From contig OX638351.1 of the NCBI GenBank assembly GCA_951813565.1, positions 1,472,001 through 1,536,000 of the forward strand: DNA of 64,000 bases. The letters are read 5' to 3'. Numbering within the stretch: position 1 is the first letter of the stretch; each line of letters starts with the position of its first letter. A model generated the notes under the pieces. The model was not told where the DNA came from, did no database searches, and saw only the letters and a list, made by a program, of their open reading frames with translations. Source of the DNA: an uncultured Poribacteria bacterium. GTDB lineage: Bacteria; Poribacteria; WGA-4E; WGA-3G. The position numbers and the translations under genes were made by a program. Below are positions 795 to 19,239 of this stretch, piece after piece.

Positions 795-3700
795 TTGAAT
801 AAAACAATAGCTGATATATTTCATATTAACCAACGTTTCTTGCGCTCAACGCACCTTGAACGGGATTTTTCAAATCCTGACGGTTGCCAAGGGTACATAC
901 CTACAGAATTTACCAGATCTTGTTTGGAGCGTTTGGCCGAAGGGTTGAAAACGAATTCTCCAAGTCGAGCATGGCGGTTAACTGGGGATTATGGGACCGG
1001 AAAATCAAGTTTTGCTTTGGTATTGGCCCACCTATTTTCGGGGCATCAAAATGGAGTATGCAAAAATCTACGGGAGTCCATTAAGATCAAAAATTCTTGC
1101 CTTAACGGAACAGGTCTTACACCGATTTTGGTAACTGGTAACCGATCATCTTTGAAGGATGCTCTCCAATCAGCTTTGCAAAAATCCATTGATAATGTTA
1201 CTGGGAATTCTAAGGCAAAACTTCCGACTCAGCTGCAGCGGATCGTAGAAATTTCAAATGAGGACATGTCTTCGCCTGTTAGTTATTCATTATTTCCTGG
1301 TGAATTGGACGAAATTTCAAGTATTGGAGATAAAGATATTGTTGAGGCGTTCATTGAGTTTAGTCATTTTGTCAAAGCGAAATCCAAGAGATCAGGAGTT
1401 CTTCTTATTCTGGATGAATTGGGTAAATTCCTTGAATTTGCAGCAATGTATCCTGATCGTCAAGATATTTACCTATTGCAACAATTGGCTGAAGCAGCTT
1501 CACGCAGCGGCGATACGCCTTTATTTGTTTTAGGGCTTTTACATCAAGGTTTCAGTGCTTATGCGGATAATCTGGACGTAACATCTAAACAAGAATGGGA
1601 AAAAGTTGCTGGAAGATTTGAAGAAATACTTTTCAATCAACCTCTTGATCAAATTGTCCATCTACTATCATCTGCTTTGGAGATTCAGACACAAGATGTG
1701 TTTAAGGAAAAACAAAACGAAGCAAGATCTCAAATGAGGTATGCCCTTAAGCATGGATGGTACGGACCTGTCCCATTAAAAGATGAGTTGTTAAATAAAG
1801 CGGCGCAATTCTTTCCGTTAGGGCCTCTGACAGTTCCTGTTATCGTGCGTACGATGCATCGTTTTGGACAGAACGAAAGATCTTTGTTTAGTTTTCTTCA
1901 ATCCTCAGAACCATTCGGTCTACAAGCCTACGCTTCACAACAACCTCTTAGAGGTGCTGGGTTATACCAAATTCATAATTTCTACGATTATGTTCGAGCA
2001 AATCTGAGCCATTCGCTTAACCTCACGAACATGCAGACCCATTGGAGTGTGGTTGATTCGGTTATTTCCAGTTATATACCTAATGATAATTTAGAAATGG
2101 AAGTACTCAAAACAGTAGGTGTGTTAAACCTACTGAATGCCAATGACCTAATACCCACTGAGGAACTTGTGATTCAGGCGGTAAAATCACGTAAGAAACC
2201 GTCTCGTCGTGTCAGTGAAGTAATAGATATTCTGAAACATAAAAAACGCGTGCTATATGATCGAGGTATTGCTGGCGGTTTATGTCTTTGGCCGCATACC
2301 AGTGTGGATTTGAACGCTGCTTATAAAAACGCAGAACGGGCAATAGCAGATATTGGACCAGTAAGTGAAAGAATTAAAACCTATCTTGATTCGAGACCAA
2401 TCGTTGCTCGCAGACACTATATAGAAACAGGAAATTTAAGGCATTTTGAAATCCAGTATTTATCTGGTTCTGAATTTGTCCAATCCACACTTTCCTTGAA
2501 TGAAGGTGTGGATGGAAAAATTATCATCGTTCTATGTGATTCACGGCAAGAGCGGCAGCAAGCATTACAAGAGGCTAAATCTGCTAATCATCCCCAAGTG
2601 ATTGTTGCTATTCCTGATCCGTTGCATAATATCGCTGACTATCTTCGGGATATTTTGTGCTGGGAATGGGTTGGCAAAAACACATTAGAACTTAATTCTG
2701 ACCGTTATGCAAGTGAAGAAGTATTACGCCAGCGTGATGCTGCCCATATACGCCTTAGGAAACGAATCTCGGACTTAATTGATCTCCGTAACTATTCAGG
2801 AAATATAAATTTTAATTGGTTTTCCGAAGGGGAACAGTTACCGATTTCTACAGGTAAAAAACTTTTAAAACATCTTTCAAAAATTTGTGACCAAGTTTTT
2901 GATCAAGCTCCCAGAGTTCAAAATGAACTTGTTAATAGACAGAACTTGAGTTCTGCTGCGTCCGGTGCCCGAATGAGATTGATTAGGGCAATGCTTGAAA
3001 GCGAATCTAAACCTAACTTAGGAATGCAAGACGATAAACGTCCTCCTGATATGTCAATGTACCTTTCGATTTTAAAGCAGGGAAATATTCACGTTGAAGG
3101 GGAAAAGACATGGTATATTCAAGAACCTCCGTCCGATGTTGATCTATGCCATATCTTACCGGTACTCAGACATATTGAGGACATATTGAAATCTGCGTTG
3201 GATAAAAAAGTTCCTGTGAAAGAACTATTTGCAGAACTCAGAAAACCTCCATACGGGGTTCGGGATGGTTTAAGACCGCTGCTGTTGGCGATTTACTATG
3301 TTGCACATCGACAGGAAATTGCAATCTTTGAAGATGGCACCTTTTTGCGTGAGGTGAGAGGGGATGATTTTTACCGCCTAATCAGAGCACCAGAGTACTT
3401 TGAAATCCAACATAGTGCGATTGAAGGTATCCGCGCATCGGTTTTTGATCAGTTGATTCAGGTACTTGAGATTCCGCAAACATCAGGTAAACAGGATTCA
3501 CGAATTCTTGATGTTGTGCTGCCTTTATGTAACTTTGTTGCACAACTTCCGGAATATGTTCATAAGACAAAGAAACTATCTCCGGAGGCCATCGCTGTTC
3601 GTGAAAAACTCATGTCAGGTGCGGAACCTGCACCACTACTTTTTCGGGATTTACCGATTGCTTATGGTGAGGTGCCATTTGATATAACCCAACCTATTGA

Positions 3701-4334
3701 CGACAGTCAAGTCCAAGAGTTTGCCGAGGGAATCAAATTTTATCTGGCTGAGCTTAAGAACGCTTACACAGAATTGCTTGAACGCATAAAAAATGCTATT
3801 TTTCAAGCGTTTGAGGAGGGTTGCAATACAGAAGGAAGAAACTCAATCGCAAGACGTGCTGATAATTTGTGGGGAATGGTGAGTGAATACCAACTCAAAG
3901 CTTTCTGTGGTCGTTTAAAAGATAAGAAACTTTCTGATACAAAATGGATTGAATCAATTGCTAATTTGGTTATTTCAGATTCCCCTTCATCCTGGGGTGA
4001 TTCTGATGAAAACGTGTTTCAATATGAATTAGCAGCTTTAGTAACAAGGTTTAAACACGTCGAACGCATCTATCACGCAGCGAAAAATATTCCTGAAAAT
4101 AACAGTGGAATTCTCCTCTTAGTTACACAAGCGGAGGGCAATGAACATGGAGAAGTCGTGTACTCTCTTCCGCAAGAAGATCCGAAGTTAGTGAATATTG
4201 AAGAAGAAATTCAGAGTTTGCTGAGTACTCACGACCGTCGTTTAAGCTTAGCAGCTATTGCCCGTGTGCTTTACAGTGAACTCAGCGATAATGTAAAGAA
4301 ACCTGATAAGAAAGAAACCGATAAGGAGAACTAA
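795..4334 (+). CDS. sspC: Large P-loop ATPase, SspC/BrxC-like
   Basis: Walker A GDYGTGKS, Walker B LLILDE, LHQ motif, EWEKVAGRF, QNERSLFSFL, LRKPPYGVRDG; 1179 aa. Confidence 0.85.
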   Translation: MNKTIADIFHINQRFLRSTHLERDFSNPDGCQGYIPTEFTRSCLERLAEGLKTNSPSRAWRLTGDYGTGKSSFALVLAHLFSGHQNGVCKNLRESIKIKNSCLNGTGLTPILVTGNRSSLKDALQSALQKSIDNVTGNSKAKLPTQLQRIVEISNEDMSSPVSYSLFPGELDEISSIGDKDIVEAFIEFSHFVKAKSKRSGVLLILDELGKFLEFAAMYPDRQDIYLLQQLAEAASRSGDTPLFVLGLLHQGFSAYADNLDVTSKQEWEKVAGRFEEILFNQPLDQIVHLLSSALEIQTQDVFKEKQNEARSQMRYALKHGWYGPVPLKDELLNKAAQFFPLGPLTVPVIVRTMHRFGQNERSLFSFLQSSEPFGLQAYASQQPLRGAGLYQIHNFYDYVRANLSHSLNLTNMQTHWSVVDSVISSYIPNDNLEMEVLKTVGVLNLLNANDLIPTEELVIQAVKSRKKPSRRVSEVIDILKHKKRVLYDRGIAGGLCLWPHTSVDLNAAYKNAERAIADIGPVSERIKTYLDSRPIVARRHYIETGNLRHFEIQYLSGSEFVQSTLSLNEGVDGKIIIVLCDSRQERQQALQEAKSANHPQVIVAIPDPLHNIADYLRDILCWEWVGKNTLELNSDRYASEEVLRQRDAAHIRLRKRISDLIDLRNYSGNINFNWFSEGEQLPISTGKKLLKHLSKICDQVFDQAPRVQNELVNRQNLSSAASGARMRLIRAMLESESKPNLGMQDDKRPPDMSMYLSILKQGNIHVEGEKTWYIQEPPSDVDLCHILPVLRHIEDILKSALDKKVPVKELFAELRKPPYGVRDGLRPLLLAIYYVAHRQEIAIFEDGTFLREVRGDDFYRLIRAPEYFEIQHSAIEGIRASVFDQLIQVLEIPQTSGKQDSRILDVVLPLCNFVAQLPEYVHKTKKLSPEAIAVREKLMSGAEPAPLLFRDLPIAYGEVPFDITQPIDDSQVQEFAEGIKFYLAELKNAYTELLERIKNAIFQAFEEGCNTEGRNSIARRADNLWGMVSEYQLKAFCGRLKDKKLSDTKWIESIANLVISDSPSSWGDSDENVFQYELAALVTRFKHVERIYHAAKNIPENNSGILLLVTQAEGNEHGEVVYSLPQEDPKLVNIEEEIQSLLSTHDRRLSLAAIARVLYSELSDNVKKPDKKETDKEN

Positions 4335-4338
4335 AACA

Positions 4339-5148
4339 GTGCCTCAAAAAGATCGTCATATTCTCAGTCTTTCAGGTGGAAAAGACAGTACCGCATTAGC
4401 TATCTATCTACGTGACGATGTTCCCGACATGGAATACATCTTTCACGATACTGGCAAAGAACTGCCTGATACATATAAATATCTCAAACGCCTGCAAGCG
4501 TATTTAGGCGTAGAGATTCAAAAGACTACCAAACATACAAGTTTTGACAAGATGTTAAGGGCGTATGGAGGTATGCTGCCTTCCAACCACCGCCGGTGGT
4601 GTACCAGAATGTTAAAATTAAAACCTTTTGAGGATTATGTTGGTGATGATCCAGTCGTAAACTATGTTGGACTTCGAGCTGACGAAGACAGAATTGGCTA
4701 TATCAGTCACAAACCCAATATTAAGGTAGTCTATCCATTTCAAGATGATGGAAAAGTTTATGAGGATATAATTAAGATTTTAGAAGACTCAGGTTTGGGG
4801 ATGCCTCCCTACACTGATTGGGGGCGTACTCACTCGGGCTGCTTTTTCTGTTTTTATCAACAAAAAATTGAGTGGGTCAGATTAAAACAGACATATCCTG
4901 GACTTTTTGAAGAGGCAAAAGCTTACGAAAAACCTAACAAGATCAATGGAAATATTTTTTATTGGAATCAGGACGAATCACTTGAAGAACTTGAGCAACC
5001 TGAACGTATGGCAGAAATCATTTCTAACTGGGAAAAGACACAAAAAAGATTGAAAGCCAAACGAAAGAATAGACCGTTAGTATCTGTGTTAGCTGGATAT
5101 GAGTCTGAGGATGAAGAAGATAGAAGTTGTTTAATGTGTTTTTTATAG
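4339..5148 (+). CDS. sspD: PAPS reductase family protein, SspD-like
   Basis: SGGKDS, RWCTRMLKLKP, GLRADE, SGCFFCFYQ, C-terminal CLMC; operon context. Confidence 0.87.
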   Translation: MPQKDRHILSLSGGKDSTALAIYLRDDVPDMEYIFHDTGKELPDTYKYLKRLQAYLGVEIQKTTKHTSFDKMLRAYGGMLPSNHRRWCTRMLKLKPFEDYVGDDPVVNYVGLRADEDRIGYISHKPNIKVVYPFQDDGKVYEDIIKILEDSGLGMPPYTDWGRTHSGCFFCFYQQKIEWVRLKQTYPGLFEEAKAYEKPNKINGNIFYWNQDESLEELEQPERMAEIISNWEKTQKRLKAKRKNRPLVSVLAGYESEDEEDRSCLMCFL

Positions 5149-5191
5149 TACTAAACCGTACTTAGAATAATAACGTATTGGGAGGAATGTA

Positions 5192-7525
5192 GTGGAAAAG
5201 AATAAGACATTTGGGGCAGAATCTAAAAGGACTTGGGATGTACTTGATCGCAGCATTGGGTTTTATATTCCACCTTACCAACGTCAATATGATTGGGATA
5301 AAAGACATATTACACGTCTTTTTGAAGATATTAATCACGGATTAATGGAACTGTTACGTAACGAAAAGAAGGATTCAATTACCTTTATTGGCACATTGAT
5401 TGTAATCGACGATACACGACCTGAAACAATTGCGCCAAATATCTCTAATTCAAACCTTCCGGGAAATGGTAATATTCAATCAGTTGTTGATGGGCAACAA
5501 CGGCTTACTACCATTCTATTGATGAATATTTGTCTCCATGATGAAATAAATAGACGTAGAAATAAGCTTGAAGAGAAAAAAGAAGGTAAACCAGCATTTG
5601 AGTGGTTATATGATAGGATAGTTAATGTATGTCCTAATCTACAAGAAACATTTGAAGAAGATAAGAGGCGTGGGGACGGTGTGTACAAATGGCAACCCCG
5701 TATGATCCGGGCATATACTGATTCATGGTCTTGTTTTCAACACGAAGCGAGATATGAATCACCGATTGCGGCGTTTATTCATGGTTATTCAAAACGCATT
5801 CATAATGACGATGAGAACTCAATGAACGAACCTTACTCTGGGGATAGTTATATTGATAGTAAAGATGTTTTGTGGAAGAATAATGTGGAGATACAAAAAC
5901 TGATTAAGATGATTTCAGGGCAAGTCAAAAAGGATCTAAAGATACTTCCTCTAAAACAGGTTGCGGCAGATCCTGATTTTCAAAAAGTAATATTGGAGGA
6001 AGAATTTCCAGAAGAAGTATGTAATATTTTATCTAACGAAGGGCATGATGATTTCAAGGAATTAATCCGTCTAGTTTTCTTTGCCAATTTTTTGATGTAT
6101 AAGGTATGGGTTACAGTTGTATCAGCACCGGGTGCTTATGCTTATAGTATATTTGAATCTTTAAACACTACTGGAGAGCCGCTTACAGTATTAGAAACTT
6201 TTAGGCCTAAGATAATAGAATTTGAGGGACCAGACAATTATGAAAATTCGGATTCCCGGACGTATATGGGGGCCGTTGAAGAATATTTGAAGCGATTTAC
6301 TACTGCAAAAACAAGACAAAAGGAAACCTATAACTTGCTACGACCTTTTGCCCTTGCTGAATCTGGTAAAAAACTTCTTTCAGATCCTGTCGATCAGAGA
6401 CAGTATATGAGGAACCAATACGAAAGTCTAACAAACGAAGAAAAGCGTGACTTTGTTAGAAATTTGAGCCATGTAGCAAATTTCATGTCAAAGGTATGGA
6501 AGAAAGAAGGGAGTGCATTTTCAGATATAATAGAATTCACCGAGGAGTCCAGGAGGAGTGTAGTCTTAATGTGTATGGGAGTTCTTGGAAAAGCTAACCC
6601 TATTACAATCGGACCTTTAACCCGGTTTTATTCCCAAGTGTTATTAGCGCATCCGGATACGCGTTCCAAAGCTGTTGATGAGTTGGAAGGAGCTGTAAAA
6701 GCAATGACAGCTTTTTTTGCATTATGGCGCGGGATTGGAAAAACAACAGGAACTCTCGCTGACCAATATAAAGATTTAATGGATAAAGGATTTGATGAGG
6801 TAGGGATTAAACCTTTCTCTAGGTGTCCACGCGAGGAAAAAGCAATAGAGTTTTTAACTGCTGCAGAATTACGAAAAGCTTTAAGGTATATTTTGAGTAG
6901 AGGTAGAACTTTAGCAATCACATCCAAAAAAGAGTGGGTAAGACTTACAGCTGAAAGACCAGTCTATGATATTTCAAAACCATTGGCCCGATTTTTGCTT
7001 TTTGCGTCAGCCCATGATACAGTTGAAGATGACAGTGATTCTGAACTTCAGAAGGCAGGGGTACAAGGAACCATGGACATGCTCACCTGGAACAAATGGA
7101 GTGATGATTTAACCATTGAACATGTTGCCCCACAAGAACCTGATCCTGATCAAGACGATTGGCCAAAATCTTTATATGAAAACCCTGTTATCTTAAATTA
7201 TTTAGGAAACTTGACACTCTTACCTACTGCTGTGAATTCTTCATTTAATAACAAGGCATGGCAAAAGAAGAAGAAAATGTACCATGTTTTATCTGGACTT
7301 ACGTCGGAGGAACGAGAAGCACGATTGGTAGACGCAAGACGGAATGGTGTAGAGTTACCAGAGAGTACGGAAGAAATTTTGCGTTCAGGAAAGTACTTCC
7401 CCCATCTTGCGACTATTTGCAACGTTGAAAAATGGGACGAAGAGCTTGTTCGAAAACGGACTAAAAGATTGGCAGAGTTGGTATGGACAAATATCTCCGC
7501 ATGGTTAGGATTTGATGAAGAATAA
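5192..7525 (+). CDS. sspE: DUF262 + DUF1524 (HNH) nuclease, SspE-like
   Basis: IPPYQRQYDW, VDGQQRLTT, FESLNTTG, C-terminal IEHVAPQ...LGNLTLLP..NSS; 777 aa; follows sspBCD. Confidence 0.85.
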   Translation: MEKNKTFGAESKRTWDVLDRSIGFYIPPYQRQYDWDKRHITRLFEDINHGLMELLRNEKKDSITFIGTLIVIDDTRPETIAPNISNSNLPGNGNIQSVVDGQQRLTTILLMNICLHDEINRRRNKLEEKKEGKPAFEWLYDRIVNVCPNLQETFEEDKRRGDGVYKWQPRMIRAYTDSWSCFQHEARYESPIAAFIHGYSKRIHNDDENSMNEPYSGDSYIDSKDVLWKNNVEIQKLIKMISGQVKKDLKILPLKQVAADPDFQKVILEEEFPEEVCNILSNEGHDDFKELIRLVFFANFLMYKVWVTVVSAPGAYAYSIFESLNTTGEPLTVLETFRPKIIEFEGPDNYENSDSRTYMGAVEEYLKRFTTAKTRQKETYNLLRPFALAESGKKLLSDPVDQRQYMRNQYESLTNEEKRDFVRNLSHVANFMSKVWKKEGSAFSDIIEFTEESRRSVVLMCMGVLGKANPITIGPLTRFYSQVLLAHPDTRSKAVDELEGAVKAMTAFFALWRGIGKTTGTLADQYKDLMDKGFDEVGIKPFSRCPREEKAIEFLTAAELRKALRYILSRGRTLAITSKKEWVRLTAERPVYDISKPLARFLLFASAHDTVEDDSDSELQKAGVQGTMDMLTWNKWSDDLTIEHVAPQEPDPDQDDWPKSLYENPVILNYLGNLTLLPTAVNSSFNNKAWQKKKKMYHVLSGLTSEEREARLVDARRNGVELPESTEEILRSGKYFPHLATICNVEKWDEELVRKRTKRLAELVWTNISAWLGFDEE

Positions 7526-7543
7526 TTAAACAAAACACGCATT

Positions 7544-8695
7544 ATGAAAACTGTTTACGCGGACAACAACGCCACAACCTCTGTTGACTCTGAAGTGATG
7601 GAGGCAATGATGCCCTACATCACAAAGGGATTTTACAATCCAAGTGCGATCAGTGGTCGCATATATGGGATTGACAAAGCCATAGCAAAATCAAGGCGGA
7701 CAGTGGCAGAATTCTTAGGGGCTTCAGATGCAAAAGAGATTGTCTTTACTTCTTGTGCGACTGAAAGCAATAATTGGGCGATTTTCGGTGCGGCTCGCGC
7801 AAATCCTGAGCGTCAACACATTATCACATCCGAAGTAGAGCACTCATCCGTTTTAGAAACTTGCAAATCACTATGTAAAAGTGGGTATGATGTTTCATTT
7901 CTCAACGTAGATAGTGACGGCAACCTGAACGTAGATGAGTTAATGGACTCCATTCGCCCTGATACGCTTTTGGTCACGTTAATGGCGGCAAACAATGAAA
8001 CAGGGGTTATATTTCCTATAGACCACTTATCTACGGTAGTTAAAGAACGAAATCCAAACATTATATTTCATACGGATGCCACACAATACGTTGGCAAGTT
8101 ACCAATTAATCTTAACCAAGTTTTTGAACATATTGATCTGCTATCCTTTTCCGCTCATAAGTTTCACGGTCCAAAAGGTATAGGTGGACTTTTCATTCGT
8201 AAAGGTACAAGGCTAGTGCCACTTCTATATGGTGGCAATCAAGAGAATGGACGTAGGAGTGGAACGGAAAATGTGTCTGGTATAATCGGACTTGCCAAAG
8301 CCTGTGAATTAGCTGATGACAACATCTACAATTTGCAAAGTGTTCAGGCATTACGCGATCAATTGGAAAAAGAATTACTGAAGTTGTTTCCTTCTGCTTT
8401 AGTAAATGGTGGAAATGCAAACCGCTTGCCTAATACACTGAATATCGCATTCAGAGATATGGATAGCGAAACACTTCTACACCAACTTTCACTGCATGGT
8501 GTTTACGCTTCAAATGGTTCGGCATGTTCCACTGGCTCTCTGAATTATTCTCACGTTCTTTCAGCAATGGATATGCCGTATGATTACATTGCTGGTAGTA
8601 TCAGATTTAGTTTTAGTCGCTTAAATAGTTCAGAAGATGTGGAAATAATAATAGAGACAATGAAACAGATAAAGTCAGGACTATTTAGCGTATAA
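7544..8695 (+). CDS. sspA: Cysteine desulfurase (IscS/NifS family), SspA role by context
   Basis: YADNNATT, HTDATQYVGK, SAHKFHGPKG (PLP Lys), SNGSAC catalytic Cys. Confidence 0.85.
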   Translation: MKTVYADNNATTSVDSEVMEAMMPYITKGFYNPSAISGRIYGIDKAIAKSRRTVAEFLGASDAKEIVFTSCATESNNWAIFGAARANPERQHIITSEVEHSSVLETCKSLCKSGYDVSFLNVDSDGNLNVDELMDSIRPDTLLVTLMAANNETGVIFPIDHLSTVVKERNPNIIFHTDATQYVGKLPINLNQVFEHIDLLSFSAHKFHGPKGIGGLFIRKGTRLVPLLYGGNQENGRRSGTENVSGIIGLAKACELADDNIYNLQSVQALRDQLEKELLKLFPSALVNGGNANRLPNTLNIAFRDMDSETLLHQLSLHGVYASNGSACSTGSLNYSHVLSAMDMPYDYIAGSIRFSFSRLNSSEDVEIIIETMKQIKSGLFSV

Positions 8696-10658: not shown

Positions 10659-11462
10659 ATGAAAAACAATGACTTCCAAGTTGATTTAACTGATGAACAG
10701 GTTGCCTTTTTTCAAGAGAACGGATATCTGAGCATTCCGCGGATTACAACAGATGAAGAGATTGAATGGCTCAAGGGCATTTACGATGAACTCTTCACTG
10801 AACGCACAGGTGAGGAGCAGGGACGCTATTTTGATTTGGCAGGTCCCCGGGCACATACTGGACAAGAGACACTGCCGCAAGTATTAGGTCCAGAAGCACA
10901 ATTTCCTGAACTCCGCGAATCTGTCTATTTCCAAAATGCACAACGACTCGCGGCAAAGCTGCTCAGTGTTGAAAAAGAAAAGGTTGGCGGTGGTGGACAC
11001 ATGATTTTGAAGCCTGCACACTACGGCAACGAAACACCGTGGCATCAGGACGAGGCATATTGGAATCCGGAAGTCTTGCCGCATAGTTTAAGCGTATGGC
11101 TTCCGCTTGACAAAGCAACGCTTGAAAGTGGATGTCTTCATTTTATTCCGAAGTCTCACAAAGGCGAAGTACGTTGGCATCGGCATATTAACGATGATCC
11201 GCTTGTGCATGGCTTGGTAACCGATGATGTTGATGTCTCGGAAGCAGTTGCATGTCCGATACCAGCAGGCGGTGCTACGTTCCATCACTGTCGGACTTTA
11301 CACTATTCTGCGCCGAACAGCACTGCACAAGAACGTAGGGCATATATTCTTGTCTTCAGCGGTCCACCACAAAAATTGGATAACCCGGCAGAACGTCCGT
11401 GGATAAAAGAGGAGCAGGAGGCACTCGCAAAACTAAAATCGTTAGCAGCAGATAGGGAATAG
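10659..11462 (+). CDS. Phytanoyl-CoA dioxygenase (PhyH) family protein
   Basis: PWHQDEAYW, SVWLPLD, GCLHFIPKSH, HHCRTLHYS. Confidence 0.9.
   Translation: MKNNDFQVDLTDEQVAFFQENGYLSIPRITTDEEIEWLKGIYDELFTERTGEEQGRYFDLAGPRAHTGQETLPQVLGPEAQFPELRESVYFQNAQRLAAKLLSVEKEKVGGGGHMILKPAHYGNETPWHQDEAYWNPEVLPHSLSVWLPLDKATLESGCLHFIPKSHKGEVRWHRHINDDPLVHGLVTDDVDVSEAVACPIPAGGATFHHCRTLHYSAPNSTAQERRAYILVFSGPPQKLDNPAERPWIKEEQEALAKLKSLAADRE
11394..11462 (+). repeat. R1: 3' end of PhyH gene, source of a 4-copy direct repeat
   Basis: cgtccgtggataaaagaggag...gatagggaatag, repeated at 12259, 13491 and 14354. Confidence 0.95.
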
Positions 11463-11506
11463 TAATTACATATTATAAAGTAGCAGGCACACTGAATTAA
11501 TCAACA

Positions 11507-11845
11507 ATGCGTGATGTACAAACACGAGAGATACAATATTACCGAACTTCAGATGGGCAAAGACCTTTTATAGAATGGTTGGAATCAATCTGAAATACGA
11601 ACACACAAGCTCGAATCCAGGCTCGACTTGAACGGCTTGAAGATGGCAATTTTGGCGACTGTCAATCTGTTGGTGATGGTGTATTTGAGTTACGGATCCA
11701 TTTTGGAGCAGGTTATCGAATCTATTTTGGACAAGTAGGGAACACAATCGTTCTTTTATTATGTGGTGGAGACAAATCATCACAAACGCGTGATATTGAA
11801 CGGGCAAAAATATATTGGCAAGAATATAAGGAGGCACATCAGTGA
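11507..11845 (+). pseudogene. RelE/HigB-type addiction-module toxin, nonsense-inactivated copy
   Basis: Near-identical to 13603-13941 but codon 29 is TGA instead of CGA (11591-11593). Confidence 0.9.
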
Positions 11846-12222
11846 GAAAAATGGGAATGTGGCGCGAGTACCTTATTGAAAAACTTGCTGACAGAGAAAG
11901 CGCAATTAACTATCTCCAAGCTATCCTTGAAGACTATCAAATTTTTGAGGATTCGACAGTCGTTCTAAGATCTCTCCATACCGTTGTTGAAGCGCAGGGT
12001 GGTGTTTCGGAACTGGCAAAGCAGACAGATATGGACCCACAAGTGCTTTCGAAAGTCCTATCTAATGAAGGGACACCTTTGATTGATGTTCTTACAGTTG
12101 TCCTTAAATCGCTTGGCTATCAACTTTCGATCCAACCGATAGACCCTGAAAACCTAAACTTTGAAGCGTTCGCTGATGTGTTAGAGACACAAAACACATC
12201 GACACAGATAGCAGAAAATTAG
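11842..12222 (+). CDS. Addiction-module antitoxin (HTH, HigA/HI1420-like), copy 1
   Basis: [13 protein letters not shown]...[16 protein letters not shown]; overlaps toxin stop (GTGA). Confidence 0.85.
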
Positions 12223-12258
12223 TTACATGCAAAAGGAACATGAGAAAAACCCGCGCAC

Positions 12259-12327
12259 CGTCCGTGGATAAAAGAGGAGCAGGAGGCACTCGCAAAACTA
12301 AAATCGTTAGCAGCAGATAGGGAATAG
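12259..12327 (+). repeat. R2: copy of PhyH 3' end
   Basis: 69/69 identical to 11394-11462 by eye. Confidence 0.95.
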
Positions 12328-12344
12328 CACAAACGAGCATTCTT

Positions 12345-12495
12345 GTAGGAGGGCTTTCTAAGCCCGATTTACAAGACGCAGCGTTCGTAGTCGCGCAATT
12401 CATTGCGTCTCTTACATTGTGTCAAAATACATTCTTGTAGGAGGGGTTTTCAACCCCGATTTCCTTCTTGTCCGAGCGAGTTCCAACTCGCGACC
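12345..12495. repeat. Cluster of GTAG-type REP-like hairpins
   Basis: gtaggagggctttctaagcccgattt, gtagtcgcgcaattcattgcg, gtaggaggggttttcaaccccgattt, gagcgagttccaactcgcgac; relatives near 18054, 19310, 35040, 39603, 42374, 55672. Confidence 0.8.
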
Positions 12496-12821
12496 TTTAG
12501 ACTAAACGGCTTAACAAACGAAAAATTGAATGCCGCTGATAAATTTTTACTTGACAAACACTATTTGCTTATGTAATAATTAATATTACAATAAATTTTT
12601 AAGTGATGAGATGCCCCAATTATGTCAACATTTCAAAATACCAACATTCAGAGGACTATTGAAAACATCACCGAAATGCCACAAAAAATAGGAATTCCGA
12701 CAGAATATCAAAAGTTACCAAAAATAAAAAAAACTAAAATTAATAATTCTCCAAAAAACACCTATAAACCCAGTCAAATACTGGATTTAAAGCAATATTC
12801 AAAAAGTTACCACGGTATGAA

Positions 12822-12845
12822 AAAAGTTACCAAATGGTAACTTTT
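12822..12845. promoter_or_regulatory. Palindromic operator-like site AAAAGTTACCA-aa-TGGTAACTTTT
   Basis: Perfect 11-bp inverted repeat; extra half-sites at 12710-12720 and 12802-12812. Confidence 0.55.
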
Positions 12846-12926
12846 CCATGCAAATAATCCTGTGAAATTATACCATTTCTGATATTAACTCTTTTCTTCT
12901 TTTGTTAATAATCGTTCTGGTGAGAG

Positions 12927-13421
12927 GTGGTACAAATGAATTTCTCAAACCTGCTTGAAAAATGGGGAATGGCATCTTTGGAAATCACGCCTCTTTTTCT
13001 GCAAATGGAGTGGACTCCAAAGGATGCGGATAAAAATGCCGCTTGGGCACTCTATATCGAATTGCTTACACGGATTACGACACAACCATTGCCCGTCGAA
13101 CACGGTGATGAAAAAACAGCTTTGGATAGTGTGTATTCACTGTTCGAAACGACAAGAGAAGTTATCAGAGAACATGGACCGGAGTGTATTAACTTTACAA
13201 AAATCGCAATTGTTGTTCTTAACCAAGTGATCCGTCCTTTTACCGCAAAGTGGCACCGAAAAAGTATAGCAGGAGACTTTGAGGACGAAACAGAACGCAC
13301 CGTTTTTCGAGACGAATTGGCTGCACTACAGCAGGAATTACGTAAATATTCTCAAATGTTGGCGGATATTGCTGATGTTGAAGACTTAACTAATCTTGAG
13401 GGGACAGAGGACACTGCGTAA
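12927..13421 (+). CDS. Hypothetical protein (helical; WALYIELLTRI...LNQVIRPFTAKWH)
   Basis: 164-aa ORF with protein-like composition; cargo between R2 and R3. Confidence 0.8.
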   Translation: MVQMNFSNLLEKWGMASLEITPLFLQMEWTPKDADKNAAWALYIELLTRITTQPLPVEHGDEKTALDSVYSLFETTREVIREHGPECINFTKIAIVVLNQVIRPFTAKWHRKSIAGDFEDETERTVFRDELAALQQELRKYSQMLADIADVEDLTNLEGTEDTA

Positions 13422-13490
13422 ATGTAGTCGTTCAAAACAATTTAAGTCTTTACTCAAAAACGGTTTTGGGATTCTCCGTTTACCGCGCAC

Positions 13491-13558
13491 CGTCCATGGC
13501 AAAAAGAGGAGCAGGAGGCACTCACAAACTTAAGTCGTTGGCGGCAGATAGGGAATAG
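13491..13558 (+). repeat. R3: diverged copy of PhyH 3' end
   Basis: cgtccatggcaaaaagaggagcaggaggcactc...gatagggaatag; several substitutions and a 1-bp deletion. Confidence 0.9.
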
Positions 13559-13602
13559 CAATTACATATTATAAAGTAGCAGGCACACTGAATTAATCAA
13601 CA

Positions 13603-13941
13603 ATGCGTGATGTACAAACACGAGAGATACAATATTACCGAACTTCAGATGGGCAAAGACCTTTTATAGAATGGTTGGAATCAATCCGAAATACGAACAC
13701 ACAAGCTCGAATCCAGGCTCGACTTGAACGGCTTGAAGATGGTAATTTTGGCGACTGTCAATCTGTTGGTGATGGTGTATTTGAGTTACGGATCCATTTT
13801 GGAGCAGGTTATCGAATCTATTTTGGACAAGTAGGGAACACAATCGTTCTTTTATTATGTGGTGGAGACAAATCATCACAAACGCGTGATATTGAACGGG
13901 CAAAAATATATTGGCAAGAATATAAGGAGGCACATCAGTGA
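13603..13941 (+). CDS. RelE/HigB-type addiction-module toxin (intact copy)
   Basis: [43 protein letters not shown]. Confidence 0.92.
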   Translation: MRDVQTREIQYYRTSDGQRPFIEWLESIRNTNTQARIQARLERLEDGNFGDCQSVGDGVFELRIHFGAGYRIYFGQVGNTIVLLLCGGDKSSQTRDIERAKIYWQEYKEAHQ

Positions 13942-14318
13942 GAAAAATGGGAATGTGGCGCGAGTACCTTATTGAAAAACTTGCTGACAGAGAAAGCGCA
14001 ATTAACTATCTCCAAGCTATCCTTGAAGACTATCAAATTTTTGAGGATTCGACAGTCGTTCTAAGATCTCTCCATACCGTTGTTGAAGCGCAGGGTGGTG
14101 TTTCTGAACTGGCAAAGCAGACAGATATGGACCCACAAGTGCTTTCGAAAGTCCTATCTAATGAAGGGACACCTTTGATTGATGTTCTTACAGTTGTCCT
14201 TAAAGCACTGGGCTATCAACTTTCGATCCAACCGATAGACCCTGAAAACCTAAACCTTGAAGCGTTCGCTGATGTGTTAGAGACACAAAACACATCGACA
14301 CGGATAGCAGAAAATTAG
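13938..14318 (+). CDS. Addiction-module antitoxin, copy 2
   Basis: 3 aa differences from 11842-12222. Confidence 0.85.
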   Translation: MRKMGMWREYLIEKLADRESAINYLQAILEDYQIFEDSTVVLRSLHTVVEAQGGVSELAKQTDMDPQVLSKVLSNEGTPLIDVLTVVLKALGYQLSIQPIDPENLNLEAFADVLETQNTSTRIAEN

Positions 14319-14353
14319 TTACATGCAAAAGGAACATGAGAAAAACCGCGCAC

Positions 14354-14422
14354 CGTCCGTGGATAAAAGAGGAGCAGGAGGCACTCGCAAAACTTAAATC
14401 GTTAGCAGCAGATAGGGTGTAG
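14354..14422 (+). repeat. R4: copy of PhyH 3' end
   Basis: Near-identical to R1; ends gatagggtgtag, followed by a diverged copy of the post-stop acatatta..aaagtag..ggcacac segment. Confidence 0.93.
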
Positions 14423-14545
14423 CAGCTACATATTAAAAGTAGTCGGCACACCAAAAAGGCACAGAGTATTCGCGCCTACAAACGCAACCTAACAAACTGA
14501 CAGCACGGAGACGCTAAATCCGCTTATATTTATGAAAGGAACTTT

Positions 14546-14977
14546 ATGGGAAGTGTTTATATCTTGAAGAACAAGGCAATGCCGAACTTAGTAAAAATCG
14601 GATTTACGGAGACACAAACTGCACAAGCTCGAGCAGATCAACTTTATCATGGCTATAATGATAGCGTAGGAACAGGTGTCCCGCTGCCTTTTGATGTTGT
14701 TCATGAAGAATTATGTGACAATCCAAAGGAACTTGAAACCTTGATACATCAAGAACTTGCTGAATTGCGTCCTAACAAAGATCGTGAGTTTTTCACATTT
14801 CCAGAACCATCAGAAGCGATACAAAAACTTAAAGAAGTTCATAAACGCCTGCCATCACATGCTAACTGTGTTAGTTCTGACAGTCTTTGGAGAAAGTGGA
14901 CATCACAATTTTTGACACGTTTCAGTAAACTCTCCAACAAGAGAACGCCAGCACCTAAAGAGGAGGAACAATTTTGA
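14546..14977 (+). CDS. T5orf172 domain (GIY-YIG superfamily) protein
   Basis: GSVYILKN..MPNLVKIGFT..RADQL..TGVPLPF..LETLIHQEL..RPNKDREFF. Confidence 0.85.
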   Translation: MGSVYILKNKAMPNLVKIGFTETQTAQARADQLYHGYNDSVGTGVPLPFDVVHEELCDNPKELETLIHQELAELRPNKDREFFTFPEPSEAIQKLKEVHKRLPSHANCVSSDSLWRKWTSQFLTRFSKLSNKRTPAPKEEEQF

Positions 14978-16491
14978 ACGGTAAACCTCATTATAGTGCG
15001 GACAGCGGTTTTGCTTGTGCAGCTGCAGGCAGAGGAATAACAGAGGCACTACAAGAACATCTTAATGTTATTATCCGTGATGAGAATCTTGAAATCGCAT
15101 TCAACAACGATTATTATCAGGCAGAGATAGAAACTTTAGTTCAGGATAGAGATGAACTTGAGAATCGGAAGGTTCAACGACTAAATGCTATCAGCGAGGC
15201 AACTAAAGAACTTGAAACAAAGGGAATAGAATTAGCCGAGTTGAAAGTAAAAATGGAATCCCCAGTAGAAATCTTGGAAACATCGGAAGGTTCACGTATT
15301 GTGGAACTAAACGAAAAAATTGAAGAAAAGATTTCAGATATGGAATCCAAGAAAGCAGAGAAAGCCAAAATCGAAACAGATTTAGAATCACCAACCCAAG
15401 TTGAATTAGATGCTCTGACCACTGATGGAACAGTTCACCAACCCGATGCAAACTGGTTCTCTAAATTACGAAACTGGTTTTCTAATGTCTTCGCGGTGCT
15501 TCCAAAAGGTATTTTCGCTGCGTTTGCCACAGTTATTGTTATCGCACTATTTGGCTATCTCTATCTTTTCTATGTGTCTGCAGGAGAAAAAATAGTCAAA
15601 TCAAGTGATGAAATGGATTTAACTGCTCTTATTGACTACGAGGCGTTAGACAGATCATGGCAATCGAATGCTTGGTTGATTCTTATGTTTCCTTCTATAT
15701 TCATCTTCCTTGCAATTGCAACCCATCTAAGTATGGAATCTGAGAAATGGACAAAATGGTTATATTTTGGTGGTTTTTTGGTAGCCACCTTCTTGATTGA
15801 AGGAATAATTGGATGGCGGATTGCACATAACATAATTGAGGCACAGAAAGCAGCATCAACAAACGGACAGAATCAAGATAGTTTCAGACTACTATTCTTA
15901 CTTTTTCTTTTCTTAGGTTTTGGTCCTTCAGTCCTGTTAGGTTTAGGCTTACAGTGGATATTAGGATTATGGGAAAACATCCGCCCACAACATGACAAGT
16001 CTAAGCAGGTGGAAATGCAGATTAGATCAGAAAAGAATGAAAAACTGGTTGAATTATCTGTTTTAAACACTGAAATCCAAAATTTAGAAGAAGGTTTGAG
16101 TCGACTTCATGAAGACAAACAAGACTATTCAGAATCACTTATGAAAACATATAGGCATCCGATTGAAACCCAAATTGCTGGCTTAGATACTGAAATTCAA
16201 AGTATTCAAGACAAAATTCAATTGCTTAACGAGCAGGTTGACAGCCTTCAAATGGAAATTGATCGTTGTGAAGCCGAGATTAGCACACACTTAAAAGGGC
16301 AACGTGAAAGAGTTCTTGACATAAAAAAGATGGAAGCACAAGCTAATGAATTCGTGACGGGATGGTGTCGGTATGTAGCACAATGTAGAACCGATCTTCA
16401 ACCCCAGGAAATCTCAAGTCAAATCACCGATATCCAAGAACTTGCCAAGCAGACACTTGAGAATTTCAAAACAACTCTTAAAACAGTTTAG
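14974..16491 (+). CDS. Coiled-coil membrane protein (about 4 TM segments between long coiled coils)
   Basis: Hydrophobic central segments flanked by E/K/L heptad-rich regions; overlaps upstream stop. Confidence 0.8.
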   Translation: MNGKPHYSADSGFACAAAGRGITEALQEHLNVIIRDENLEIAFNNDYYQAEIETLVQDRDELENRKVQRLNAISEATKELETKGIELAELKVKMESPVEILETSEGSRIVELNEKIEEKISDMESKKAEKAKIETDLESPTQVELDALTTDGTVHQPDANWFSKLRNWFSNVFAVLPKGIFAAFATVIVIALFGYLYLFYVSAGEKIVKSSDEMDLTALIDYEALDRSWQSNAWLILMFPSIFIFLAIATHLSMESEKWTKWLYFGGFLVATFLIEGIIGWRIAHNIIEAQKAASTNGQNQDSFRLLFLLFLFLGFGPSVLLGLGLQWILGLWENIRPQHDKSKQVEMQIRSEKNEKLVELSVLNTEIQNLEEGLSRLHEDKQDYSESLMKTYRHPIETQIAGLDTEIQSIQDKIQLLNEQVDSLQMEIDRCEAEISTHLKGQRERVLDIKKMEAQANEFVTGWCRYVAQCRTDLQPQEISSQITDIQELAKQTLENFKTTLKTV

Positions 16492-16501
16492 AGGTTTTTA
16501 T

Positions 16502-17371
16502 ATGAAAAGAATTAATGTTGTTGTAGTAATGTATATTCTATTTCTTATTTTACTAAATGTTAGTCATTCGGATAGTAAGGTATCAGATGCTCCCGTAAAT
16601 ATCATCGTTATTATTGATACGTCGGATCGTATTTCCAAAGAAAAACATCCCGACCAAAGAGAAAGAGACATTGACATTCTAAAAGAGATTGTTGATCAGT
16701 TTTATAAACTTGTTGAACCCACCATCATGAAAGGTGGCACAATTAAAACTCCACATAGTCTTACTTTTGTAGTTCCACCTCAACTCAAAACACAGAAGCC
16801 CCCGAATGAAATTATAAATATGTTGACAATTGAGGCACCAAAGAAACGTAGCGAAAATCCTGGATTCCAAAAAAAGAAGGTGGAATTAATTGATGCTATT
16901 TCCGAGTTATACGACCATGTTCAACAGAACCCACAAACCGGATCAGATATTTGGGATTGGTTTAGGTCTCAAGCCAAGCCATCCTTTTCGAAAAACCACC
17001 AGAACCTGGTAATCTGTCTTTCTGATGGCTACCTCAACTTTGATATTGACATTGAAGCGGAGCGTCCCAAAGGAACATGTATGAGGATTGGTGCAGTGCG
17101 TGATGATCCAGAAGCGGTCAACAAAATAAAAAATGGAAGTGAGGGGTTATTACCAGTAGCAAACTTCAGTGATTTCAATACAAAATTCTTGATGCTTGAA
17201 ATACGACTACGCGAAAAAAACGGAGTGAAGTATTTCCAAGATTTTGGCATTATTCAAGCGTATTGGGAGACATGGTTAAATGCTATGGGCATTAAGGACA
17301 TTAAACTTTTTGAACAACTGGGCACAGGAGGTTTGAAAAATATGATTGAAAACTTCATTCAATCAAAATAG
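16502..17371 (+). CDS. Exported vWA-like protein
   Basis: N-terminal signal-like stretch; IIVIIDTSDRIS (MIDAS-like), GSDIWDWF, VICLSDGY. Confidence 0.65.
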   Translation: MKRINVVVVMYILFLILLNVSHSDSKVSDAPVNIIVIIDTSDRISKEKHPDQRERDIDILKEIVDQFYKLVEPTIMKGGTIKTPHSLTFVVPPQLKTQKPPNEIINMLTIEAPKKRSENPGFQKKKVELIDAISELYDHVQQNPQTGSDIWDWFRSQAKPSFSKNHQNLVICLSDGYLNFDIDIEAERPKGTCMRIGAVRDDPEAVNKIKNGSEGLLPVANFSDFNTKFLMLEIRLREKNGVKYFQDFGIIQAYWETWLNAMGIKDIKLFEQLGTGGLKNMIENFIQSK

Positions 17372-17533: not shown

Positions 17534-17653
17534 GAAGGTTCCTAAACAATGAATATCTTCTGTACAGGCATCAGTTGTTCAGGACGCAAAAAATTAATCA
17601 AAGATTTTGAAGCACGCTGCGTCCAAAGAGAACTGAACATCGGCTTTTTTCAA
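17534..17653 (+). pseudogene. Duplicated 5' fragment of the NMP-kinase-like gene at 18208
   Basis: Aligns to 18193-18311 with about 8 substitutions and one extra T; encodes MNIFCTGISCSGRKKLIKDFE... Confidence 0.92.
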
Positions 17654-17883
17654 TCTCTTTGATGTTGTTTCACAGCAATATGTTTGTCAATCAGTTCAAG
17701 CACGGCGGGTACCAATTCTGTAGGAATCGCCATCAACGTGCTGGACTCATCCTGAAATGCAGCCTCATCTTCAGCAACAGCTTCATCCTCTGTTTGTTGT
17801 TCGTAATGTGCAATGACACTTTGTACGCGCGCTTCATCCCACCCAGGCGGAAATTTATTCTGCGTTATCCTCTGTTTCTCCAT
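17650..17883 (-). CDS. Small acidic hypothetical protein (possibly orphan antitoxin-like)
   Basis: 77 aa; FPPGWDEARVQSVIAHYE..EDEAVAEDEAA. Confidence 0.65.
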   Translation of the reverse strand: MEKQRITQNKFPPGWDEARVQSVIAHYEQQTEDEAVAEDEAAFQDESSTLMAIPTELVPAVLELIDKHIAVKQHQRD

Positions 17884-18160: not shown

Positions 18161-18207
18161 CCATAGTATATAAGCAGAGTTTCAGAATAAGTGAAGGTTA
18201 CGAAACA

Positions 18208-19239
18208 ATGAATATTTTCTGCACAGGCATCAGTTGTTCAGGACGCAAAGAGTTAATCAAAGATTTTGAAGCACTCTGCGTGCAAAGAGAACTGAACATC
18301 GGCTTTTTCAACGTTGGCGATTACATGCACCGAGTTGCTGCGGAATCACGCGTCCATTTCACAGAAAAGGTGCTCGATTCAGATCCGGCTGTTTTATCGT
18401 TAGCGCGACGCACTGCTTTCTACGAAATCGCAAGGGATGCCAAATTTTACGAACACGCCATCATAGGGCTACACGCCTGCTTCCGATGGCGTGGCAGTCT
18501 GCTTGAAGGATTCTCCTTTAAAGATATTGATATTATTCCGCCCGATATGTTCATCAACGTAGTTGACAATATCACAGACATCTACGCTCGGATGGAAAAA
18601 AGCACGCAATGGGCGGGTATCAAAAAAGCAGCACTCAATGTCTGGTTGGACGAGGAAGAATTTCTTACAAGACAGATTGCGCATCTCACAGAAAAACCGC
18701 ACTACACTGTTGCACGGCAACACGAACTCGCGAATTTCTATGAACTCCTTTTTTCAGACAAACCGAAATTCTATCTCAGCTACCCGATTACACTGCTAAG
18801 GGATACCCCAGAGGAGATTGAGAAAATTCGCAAACTCGGTGAAAAACTGCGCCACGCTTTTATTGTCTTTGATCCGCTGACAATTAAGGATATGGCACTT
18901 GTCACCTTCTCAAAAGCGGAGGCTGATGACGAAATGTTGAATGTGCCTGAAACGATGAGCGAATTGGACGATGACGTTATTGAGCAGATTAAAACGCGAA
19001 CTATTTCACGGGATTACCAGTTTGTCCACCAAAGCGATTTCGTTGTTGTGCTTTATCCTACAGACAAATTGTCGCCCGGTGTTCTCAGTGAGATGAACTA
19101 TGCTACCCGTCATAATAAGCCGGTATACGCCGTTTACAACGAAACGCGGAGCATCTTCTTTGAAAACTTATGTGATAAGATTTTTGACACCTTTGAGGAG
19201 TTAGACGATTTTTTGAAGGAAACGTACCAGAATAGATGA
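18208..19239 (+). CDS. NMP-kinase-like P-loop domain fused to nucleoside 2-deoxyribosyltransferase-like domain
   Basis: N-terminal TGISCSGR P-loop; C-terminal YLSYPIT..VFDPL..RDYQFVHQSDFVVV..SPGVLSEMNYA..KPVY. Confidence 0.65.
   Translation: MNIFCTGISCSGRKELIKDFEALCVQRELNIGFFNVGDYMHRVAAESRVHFTEKVLDSDPAVLSLARRTAFYEIARDAKFYEHAIIGLHACFRWRGSLLEGFSFKDIDIIPPDMFINVVDNITDIYARMEKSTQWAGIKKAALNVWLDEEEFLTRQIAHLTEKPHYTVARQHELANFYELLFSDKPKFYLSYPITLLRDTPEEIEKIRKLGEKLRHAFIVFDPLTIKDMALVTFSKAEADDEMLNVPETMSELDDDVIEQIKTRTISRDYQFVHQSDFVVVLYPTDKLSPGVLSEMNYATRHNKPVYAVYNETRSIFFENLCDKIFDTFEELDDFLKETYQNR

Follow-up and report, generated by a model that had tools for sequence, protein, structure and literature searches.

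Integrase-free stacking of accessory genes on duplicated ends of a PhyH gene in Poribacteria: a likely role for homologous recombination

How do accessory genes enter a chromosomal hot spot that has no integrase? The question is raised by a locus of an uncultured Poribacteria bacterium, a sponge symbiont. The window analysed here is a stretch of 64,000 nt (assembly GCA_951813565.1, contig OX638351.1, positions 1,472,001 to 1,536,000) of a genome that we designate G000, which is a single contig of 5.43 Mb; positions given without a genome label refer to the window. In the window, the 3′ end of a gene for a PhyH-family dioxygenase (PhyH) recurs downstream of the gene, with toxin–antitoxin (TA) genes and other cargo between the copies. 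On the comparative data, the locus is a real example, with good support, of cassettes that stack on duplicated gene ends without an integrase, and there is good evidence that the repeats are reused. The tail copies probably act as homology handles for RecA-type recombination in a variable stack of accessory genes. It is likely that ordinary homologous recombination at the copies, and not a dedicated integrase, adds these genes, removes them and exchanges them between species.

PhyH (10659–11462, plus strand) is intact, encodes 267 aa (PF05721, E = 1.5e-33) and is present in all 36 relatives of the genus. Its final 69 nt (11394–11462) encode RPWIKEEQEALAKLKSLAADRE and the stop codon. Together with a tail of ~30 nt they make up R1 (11394–11492). 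The 69 nt recur, on the same strand, in R2 (12259–12327; 69/69 compared with R1), R3 (13491–13588; a diverged copy at 13491–13558, 60/69, plus a tail), and R4 (14354–14451; 66/69 at 14354–14422, plus a diverged tail), confirming the four repeats reported in a preliminary description of this DNA. Three copies run ~30 bp beyond the stop codon, as was also reported: the tail of R1 is common to R3 (29/30) and R4 (24/30), but not to R2 (15/32). R2 is followed by a tail with repetitive extragenic palindromic (REP) sequences, which directly follows PhyH in G006, G026, and G036, and R3 stands behind a second junction type common to G006 and G017. The duplications at the locus are 69–99 bp long, and the PhyH-tail repeat has no further copy anywhere in the G000 genome.

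The preliminary description took the four copies for the heads of four separate cassettes. Instead, there are three repeat-bounded inserts of 0.8–1.2 kb, two of which are copies of each other: R1–TA–R2 (11394–12329) and R3–TA–R4 (13491–14424) are a single duplicated 936-bp block with 97.65% identity. In the first copy of the block, the gene of the RelE/ParE-like (HI1419-type) toxin (11507–11845, plus strand) is a pseudogene with a stop at codon 29 and is followed by the HI1420-type antitoxin gene (11842–12222, plus strand; PF21716). The second copy carries an intact TA pair (13603–14318, plus strand; TIGR02683, 130 bits, above the cut-off; PF21716). The TA-type junction between the first antitoxin gene and R2 (12223–12258, plus strand) ends in ~16 nt that, read by eye, agree with the PhyH allele of G027 and G015, which are other species; the original copy was therefore ~85 nt long. 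Between R2 and R3 lies a gene for a hypothetical protein of 161–164 aa (12927–13421, plus strand), a recurrent cargo at the PhyH site. For the 164-aa protein, no match is found in Pfam, PADLOC, or NCBIfam, and its Atlas neighbours are unnamed. R4 is followed by a three-gene operon (14546–17371, plus strand) for a T5orf172-domain protein, a coiled-coil membrane protein, and an unknown protein. This central cargo has no tail copy behind it, and among the genus loci compared below it stands at the PhyH site in G000 only.

To the right, the variable interval is bounded by a conserved AAA_17/Nuc_deoxyrib_tr gene (AAA; 18193–19239, plus strand). Relatives with a protein identity of 85–95% belong to Ca. 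Poribacteria. We compared the locus in 34 of the 36 genus relatives with PhyH (G010 and G024, on short contigs, were omitted) and in five genomes from other families, which gives 35 genus loci including G000. In the 23 genus loci in which AAA comes next in the same direction, the gap between PhyH and AAA ranges from 40 to 11473 bp (~11.5 kb), and in 5 of the 23 it is at most 310 bp. Different gene sets stand between these two conserved genes in different relatives. They recur from a small cargo pool, their order differs between relatives, and the TA-plus-junction unit stands first, second or later in different genomes. The comparison of the PhyH-to-kinase interval proposed in the preliminary description thus finds both the number and the order of cassettes to vary. 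Tail copies are present in 15 of the 35 genus loci and in none of the five loci of other families; multi-copy arrays occur in independent assemblies as well (for example G006, G016, and G033), and G004, G018, G025, G023, and G030 have an empty site, at which the gene end is present once. Each junction type is tied to a cargo end. Of 17 genomes, 13 have a tail copy behind the antitoxin gene, and of the 12 genomes with the 3′ end of the 164-aa gene only 3 have one behind it, indicating that the repeats are common yet not required.

The TA block points to exchange between species. At four-fold degenerate sites, the TA genes of G000 are 95–100% identical to those of G003, G020, and G029, whereas sppA, PhyH, and AAA are 53–68% identical. 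In bins of 100 nt, identity is 82–91% within PhyH, 94–99% from the stop codon through the TA pair, and 87–88% at R2. For this block, the shared tract begins with a step in identity at the PhyH stop, and no tract is shared within the PhyH body. Because the silent sites of the TA genes are so much closer than those of the core genes and the step lies at the PhyH stop, we conclude that this block passed from one species to another in recent times, as a unit bounded by the repeats. In addition, the tail copies resemble the gene end of their own host (12 of 17 rank sixth or better among 35, ties included), as expected if crossovers or conversion happen inside the repeat.

Within G000, the two copies of the TA pair group as sisters (differing at 8 of 786 sites; 100/98 support), and their independent acquisition from different species is rejected. 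Near-identical strains carry simpler arrangements: X15 (a public run) has PhyH–R–TA–R, and X1 and X2 have the 164-aa gene, R3, and TA on one 1553-bp contig, with an R2-type tail on a separate contig in X2. Since both parental arrangements occur in such strains, the G000 array would most simply derive from one unequal crossover between two conspecific variants, PhyH–TA–R and PhyH–164aa–R3–TA–R4, after which the redundant first toxin gene would have decayed. The T5orf172 operon has low cover in X14 and none in X2, which we take as a hint only. The suggestion in the preliminary description that the gene tail serves as a reusable recombination site is borne out by the variable cassettes, by the rearrangement in near-identical strains, and by the interspecies passage of the TA block, the left boundary of which lies at the end of PhyH. 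That the array is a mis-assembly of strain variants is barely conceivable. Other near-identical strains have one TA copy, and no listed contig spans the whole stretch; however, the two duplicated blocks differ at 22 positions, the TA contig has a depth ~2.9-fold that of its flanks in runs X11 (185 vs 65) and X13 (236 vs ~80), both of which may belong to the source study, a summed depth and not a copy number, and multi-copy arrays recur in the independent assemblies named above. We do not claim a third TA copy or an amplified 2096-bp unit; the depths (2.9-fold and 1.6–1.9-fold) fit, but a neighbouring piece of this unit is at ~1-fold and depths are summed over organisms.

The same architecture is found at other genes. 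A census of 3781 G000 genes gives downstream tail copies for 18 genes and upstream start copies for 21, with 5 and 12, respectively, in the opposite sense and 4 mid-gene; in a chance control that took a 12-kb window at a distance of 100 kb, none of the 3781 genes has such a copy. In a stricter census of 3751 genes, 30 cases are gene-preserving, 12 opposite, and 5 mid-gene, so that gene-preserving polarity is favoured; the census counts include some paralogue remnants. The genome-wide search for gene-end repeats around cargo that the preliminary description proposed thus succeeds, at atpC, hsdM, and ~30 G000 genes. At atpC, 24 of 40 loci (39 genomes) carry 38 copies in 11 junction families, which start 32–191 nt before the stop codon. 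In G000, the single atpC tail copy (173 nt) brackets an 82-aa gene and a DUF6932 gene that is split (L073:2585–4070; G000:C1:1618584–1620069), and up to six copies occur in G028. A DUF6932 pair is found at both atpC and PhyH. The two sets are only 74–80% alike in DNA and their flanks differ, so that hopping of cargo between host genes is not shown. At hsdM (L074:5212–10301; G000:C1:2103211–2108300), three extra tail copies separate an HEC-03 pair (AAA_21; PADLOC HEC-03), a ParE-type pair, and an unknown pair. By eye, the last copy carries the overlap into the apparent hsdS start, and the duplication may preserve the ribosome site of hsdS; similar copies are present in several relatives. At an ArgZ-like gene (L081; G000:C1:5071490–5077124), two extra tail copies stand between two paralogous pairs of secreted and PD40-repeat genes, a non-defence cargo.

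In a protein search, atpC tail copies are found in 21 of 74 genomes of family f1 and in none of 47 genomes of three other families. A census of 400-kb stretches gives 0/275 and 0/262 genes in two f3 genomes (0/537 together) and 7/258 in G049, a genome of family f2. The idea of a lineage-specific system is weakened by G049, despite the f3 result, and the pattern is therefore not special to this lineage.

What makes and uses the junctions? No integrase or transposase Pfam match is found among the 59 window proteins scanned, and no attC pattern (RYYYAAC...GTTRRRY) at 11300–14600, in line with the preliminary description, which saw none of the three in the window. The repeats fold weakly (−4.5 to −7.5 kcal/mol). 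The whole G000 genome has no IntI (TIGR02249, best score 33 bits against a cut-off of 265) and no full-length XerC/D-like match. Its sole tyrosine recombinase (203 aa; G000:C1:4771354–4771965) is 3.3 Mb away and has little beyond the catalytic domain; similar short matches are found in many genus genomes. Among the tyrosine recombinase matches listed for 40 genus genomes, none is close to PhyH or atpC (positions compared by eye). G031 (93% complete) carries copies at PhyH, atpC, and AAA without any tyrosine recombinase match. Serine recombinases were searched for in G000, in which three serine resolvase domains are present, all elsewhere. RecA, ComEC, and three DprA are present in G000. The three DprA-family genes lie at G000:C1:2140987, 2812895, and 2922220, three in one genome. 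No Ku is found in G000, and non-homologous end joining is rejected.

The junctions do not point to a fixed site either. By eye there are ~6 junction types at PhyH, the duplications at PhyH and atpC vary in length from ~30 to 260 nt, and no 4-mer is shared above background at the junctions of 14 host genes. A site-specific crossover at PhyH position 736 is rejected, as the shared start reflects the query allele; relative to other alleles, the junctions begin ~16, 8, or 5 nt earlier or far away. No 8-mer is strongly over-represented in G000 as an uptake- or Chi-like motif would be. A role of the repeats as promoters finds no support, promoter-like sites in the repeats being at chance level.

We therefore propose a scheme in three steps. 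Initially, a rare illegitimate join would link a cargo end to a point inside the host gene, 30–260 nt before the stop codon, and joins that duplicate the gene end would survive, with the host gene staying whole. Subsequently, and here the comparison of genomes lends support to transfer and rearrangement with boundaries at the repeats, cargo between two tail copies would be added ahead of resident cargo via crossovers within the tail. The source would be a circle, or a linear tail–cargo–tail fragment from transformation, which probably feeds the RecA-type crossovers. Repeat-bounded cargo could also be looped out, or duplicated by unequal exchange. Finally, later deletions trim copies and junctions, as is seen in the trimmed junctions of present arrays.

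Several observations weigh against this proposal. Tail copies are not needed for cargo at this locus, as none is found behind the 164-aa gene in 9 of 12 genomes or behind the antitoxin gene in 4 of 17. Of the 17 tail copies ranked, 5 do not rank near the PhyH end of their own host, and TA and PhyH distances are still correlated (Spearman 0.43). Differences between G000 and G003 persist within the repeat until a few bases ahead of the stop codon, so that the crossover may have its place at the stop or immediately behind it. With its 69 nt, the repeat is short for RecA to exchange it efficiently. The data, which are contigs only, contain neither a circle nor a read that documents loop-out, nor do they show dependence on RecA. 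Moreover, junction starts cluster: 5 of 11 atpC families fall within 11 nt (post-hoc p ~ 0.025) and 3 of 6 PhyH types do likewise (p ~ 0.1), which random joins do not predict. The clustering could come from new joins near the edge of existing homology, or from deletions sparing the copy.

The copies might instead be passive scars: break repair across sister chromosomes would have produced single insertions with long target duplication, and cassettes would spread only via replacement recombination in the long flanking core, as minimal mobile elements do, with the repeats not reused. The many loci that have cargo without any copy are in accordance with such scars, as are the decay and trimming of copies and the pooled control rate (7/795 genes, all in one of three genomes), which is like that of G000 (30/3751). 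Against this reading, identity steps up at the PhyH stop while no tract is shared inside the body of PhyH, the TA-plus-junction unit takes different positions in different genomes, and copies track the host allele. We consider passive scars rather unlikely.

Independent junction families cluster at atpC, PhyH, and hsdM, and this could also reflect a trans-acting host enzyme with relaxed site preference (a recombinase, HUH nuclease, or nickase) that makes or reuses the junctions in an integron-like way. A tyrosine recombinase of the short 203-aa type occurs widely across the genus, and the confinement of atpC copies to family f1 agrees with such an enzyme. Yet the junctions have no motif, hairpin, or attC and vary widely in length, the 203-aa type of recombinase is present in G004, G018, and G025, which have empty sites, and was not found in G031, and a genome of another family has the same kind of scar at other genes, so that the enzyme is an improbable explanation. 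Highly improbable is a descent of the inserts from integrative elements, in the manner of cis-mobilizable elements (CIMEs), which would have accreted at an attachment (att) site within the 3′ end of PhyH and would since have lost their integrases. The layout is indeed that of CIMEs, with tandem accretion at a gene 3′ end and displaced copies of that end (as outlined in the part of PMC5704250 considered here), but this descent is largely refuted by the lack of a fixed att site; gene starts are duplicated as often as ends, and the by-eye comparison of 40 genus genomes placed no tyrosine recombinase match near PhyH or atpC. Homologous recombination at the copies remains the reading we favour. A more far-reaching version of it would make the tail copies selected, self-propagating handles, an integrase-free counterpart of the integron. 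The host's machinery for transformation and recombination, perhaps aided by an enzyme that prefers certain positions and accounts for the clustered junctions, would then assemble ordered arrays of TA and defence genes at dozens of core genes and hand single cassettes from one species to another; this version is doubtful.

How does the locus compare with known systems? Integrons have IntI, attI, and attC, the last acting as a folded single-strand site. The locus is like them in being an ordered array of small TA or defence-like cassettes, the newest likely nearest the anchor, and unlike them in having no IntI, no attC, and no folded single-strand site. The integron-like system of the preliminary description, with a defined att site and a trans-acting recombinase, is not upheld, given junctions at many positions, no motif, and no IntI. 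Minimal mobile elements of Neisseria, reportedly introduced by Saunders and Snyder in 2002, exchange by replacement in their flanks. What is described of them in PMC1797815, as far as that paper is considered here, resembles the locus in having alternative small gene sets between two conserved genes, and empty sites. The tail copies, in contrast to such replacement, would permit addition without loss.

The closest class is insertion with long target duplication, reportedly described by Nobusato in 2000 (a work that Furuta 2010 lists as reference 37). The portions of Furuta, Abe and Kobayashi 2010 (PMC2853133) considered here describe inserts of <20 kb with variable duplications of >30 bp and no mobile element, an empty site in relatives, and repeats that often span a start or stop codon and leave the gene intact, mostly in competent species. 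The locus agrees in the length of its duplications (>30 bp), their variability, inserts without mobility genes, and the empty site in relatives. The cases in those portions are single inserts of restriction–modification (RM) genes, and the word "tandem" does not occur in the text of the paper. Here, the cargo is TA and unknown genes, inserts are stacked, and a repeat-bounded unit crosses species. Thus the locus works like this class but is no RM member. The supplements (such as Figure S7 of PMC2853133) may hold stacked cases; in the literature covered here, we found no report of such arrays in Poribacteria. The claim of an undescribed system cannot be kept, as long and variable target duplications that span start or stop codons without a mobile element are known (same portions of PMC2853133). 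The locus is best read as widening insertion with long target duplication to non-RM cargo in stacks. It is neither an integron nor an undescribed system, nor does it resemble a new enzyme-driven system, and the pattern extends beyond G000.

Two further systems form arrays in a comparable way. In the parts of Kirchberger 2017 (PMC5361080) considered here, birth by homology-facilitated illegitimate recombination and spread by homologous recombination are proposed for the displacement arrays of type VI secretion system (T6SS)/Rhs genes in Vibrio, in which an integrase-free array also grows beside a conserved anchor. There, the old effector is displaced, orphan immunity genes or C-termini remain, and the protein is altered, whereas at the PhyH locus non-coding tail copies serve as spacers and the host protein stays the same. 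Tandem accretion of CIMEs and integrative and conjugative elements, as presented in the part of PMC5704250 considered here, likewise gives integrase-free tandem units at a gene 3′ end, separated by copies of that end. CIMEs, however, keep fixed attL and attR and need a cognate integrase, whereas here the junctions vary and no such integrase is found. For this genus there are dozens of complete genomes in which the same genes carry many independent junctions, as well as a TA block that crosses species, and the birth and reuse of junctions are thus open to comparative study and to rebuilding in a laboratory strain.

On the right-hand side of the interval, the start of AAA is also duplicated, which the preliminary description did not mention. 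Between a copy (93%) of the start of this AAA/nucleoside-deoxyribosyltransferase gene (17534–17649, plus strand) and AAA itself lies a 77-aa gene (17650–17883, minus strand), which is antitoxin-like by reading only and has no family match. Such copies are present in 8 of the 23 loci with AAA in place. Upstream of the 164-aa gene, the segment 12340–12845 contains REP-like palindromes (12340–12500), a sigma-70-like promoter (12551–12580, 11/12), and a dispersed ~90-bp repeat. This intergenic repeat (12736–12845, ~90–110 bp) has ~14 other copies in the genome and is distinct from the palindromes.

Directly upstream of sppA–PhyH lies an Ssp phosphorothioate defence locus (1152–8695) with PADLOC matches to SspD, SspE, and SspA/DndA. 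In G000 coding sequence as a whole, CATATG is strongly avoided, far beyond other 6-base palindromes. Because its frequency is 0.07 of expectation, a long-standing restriction or methylation system is suggested.

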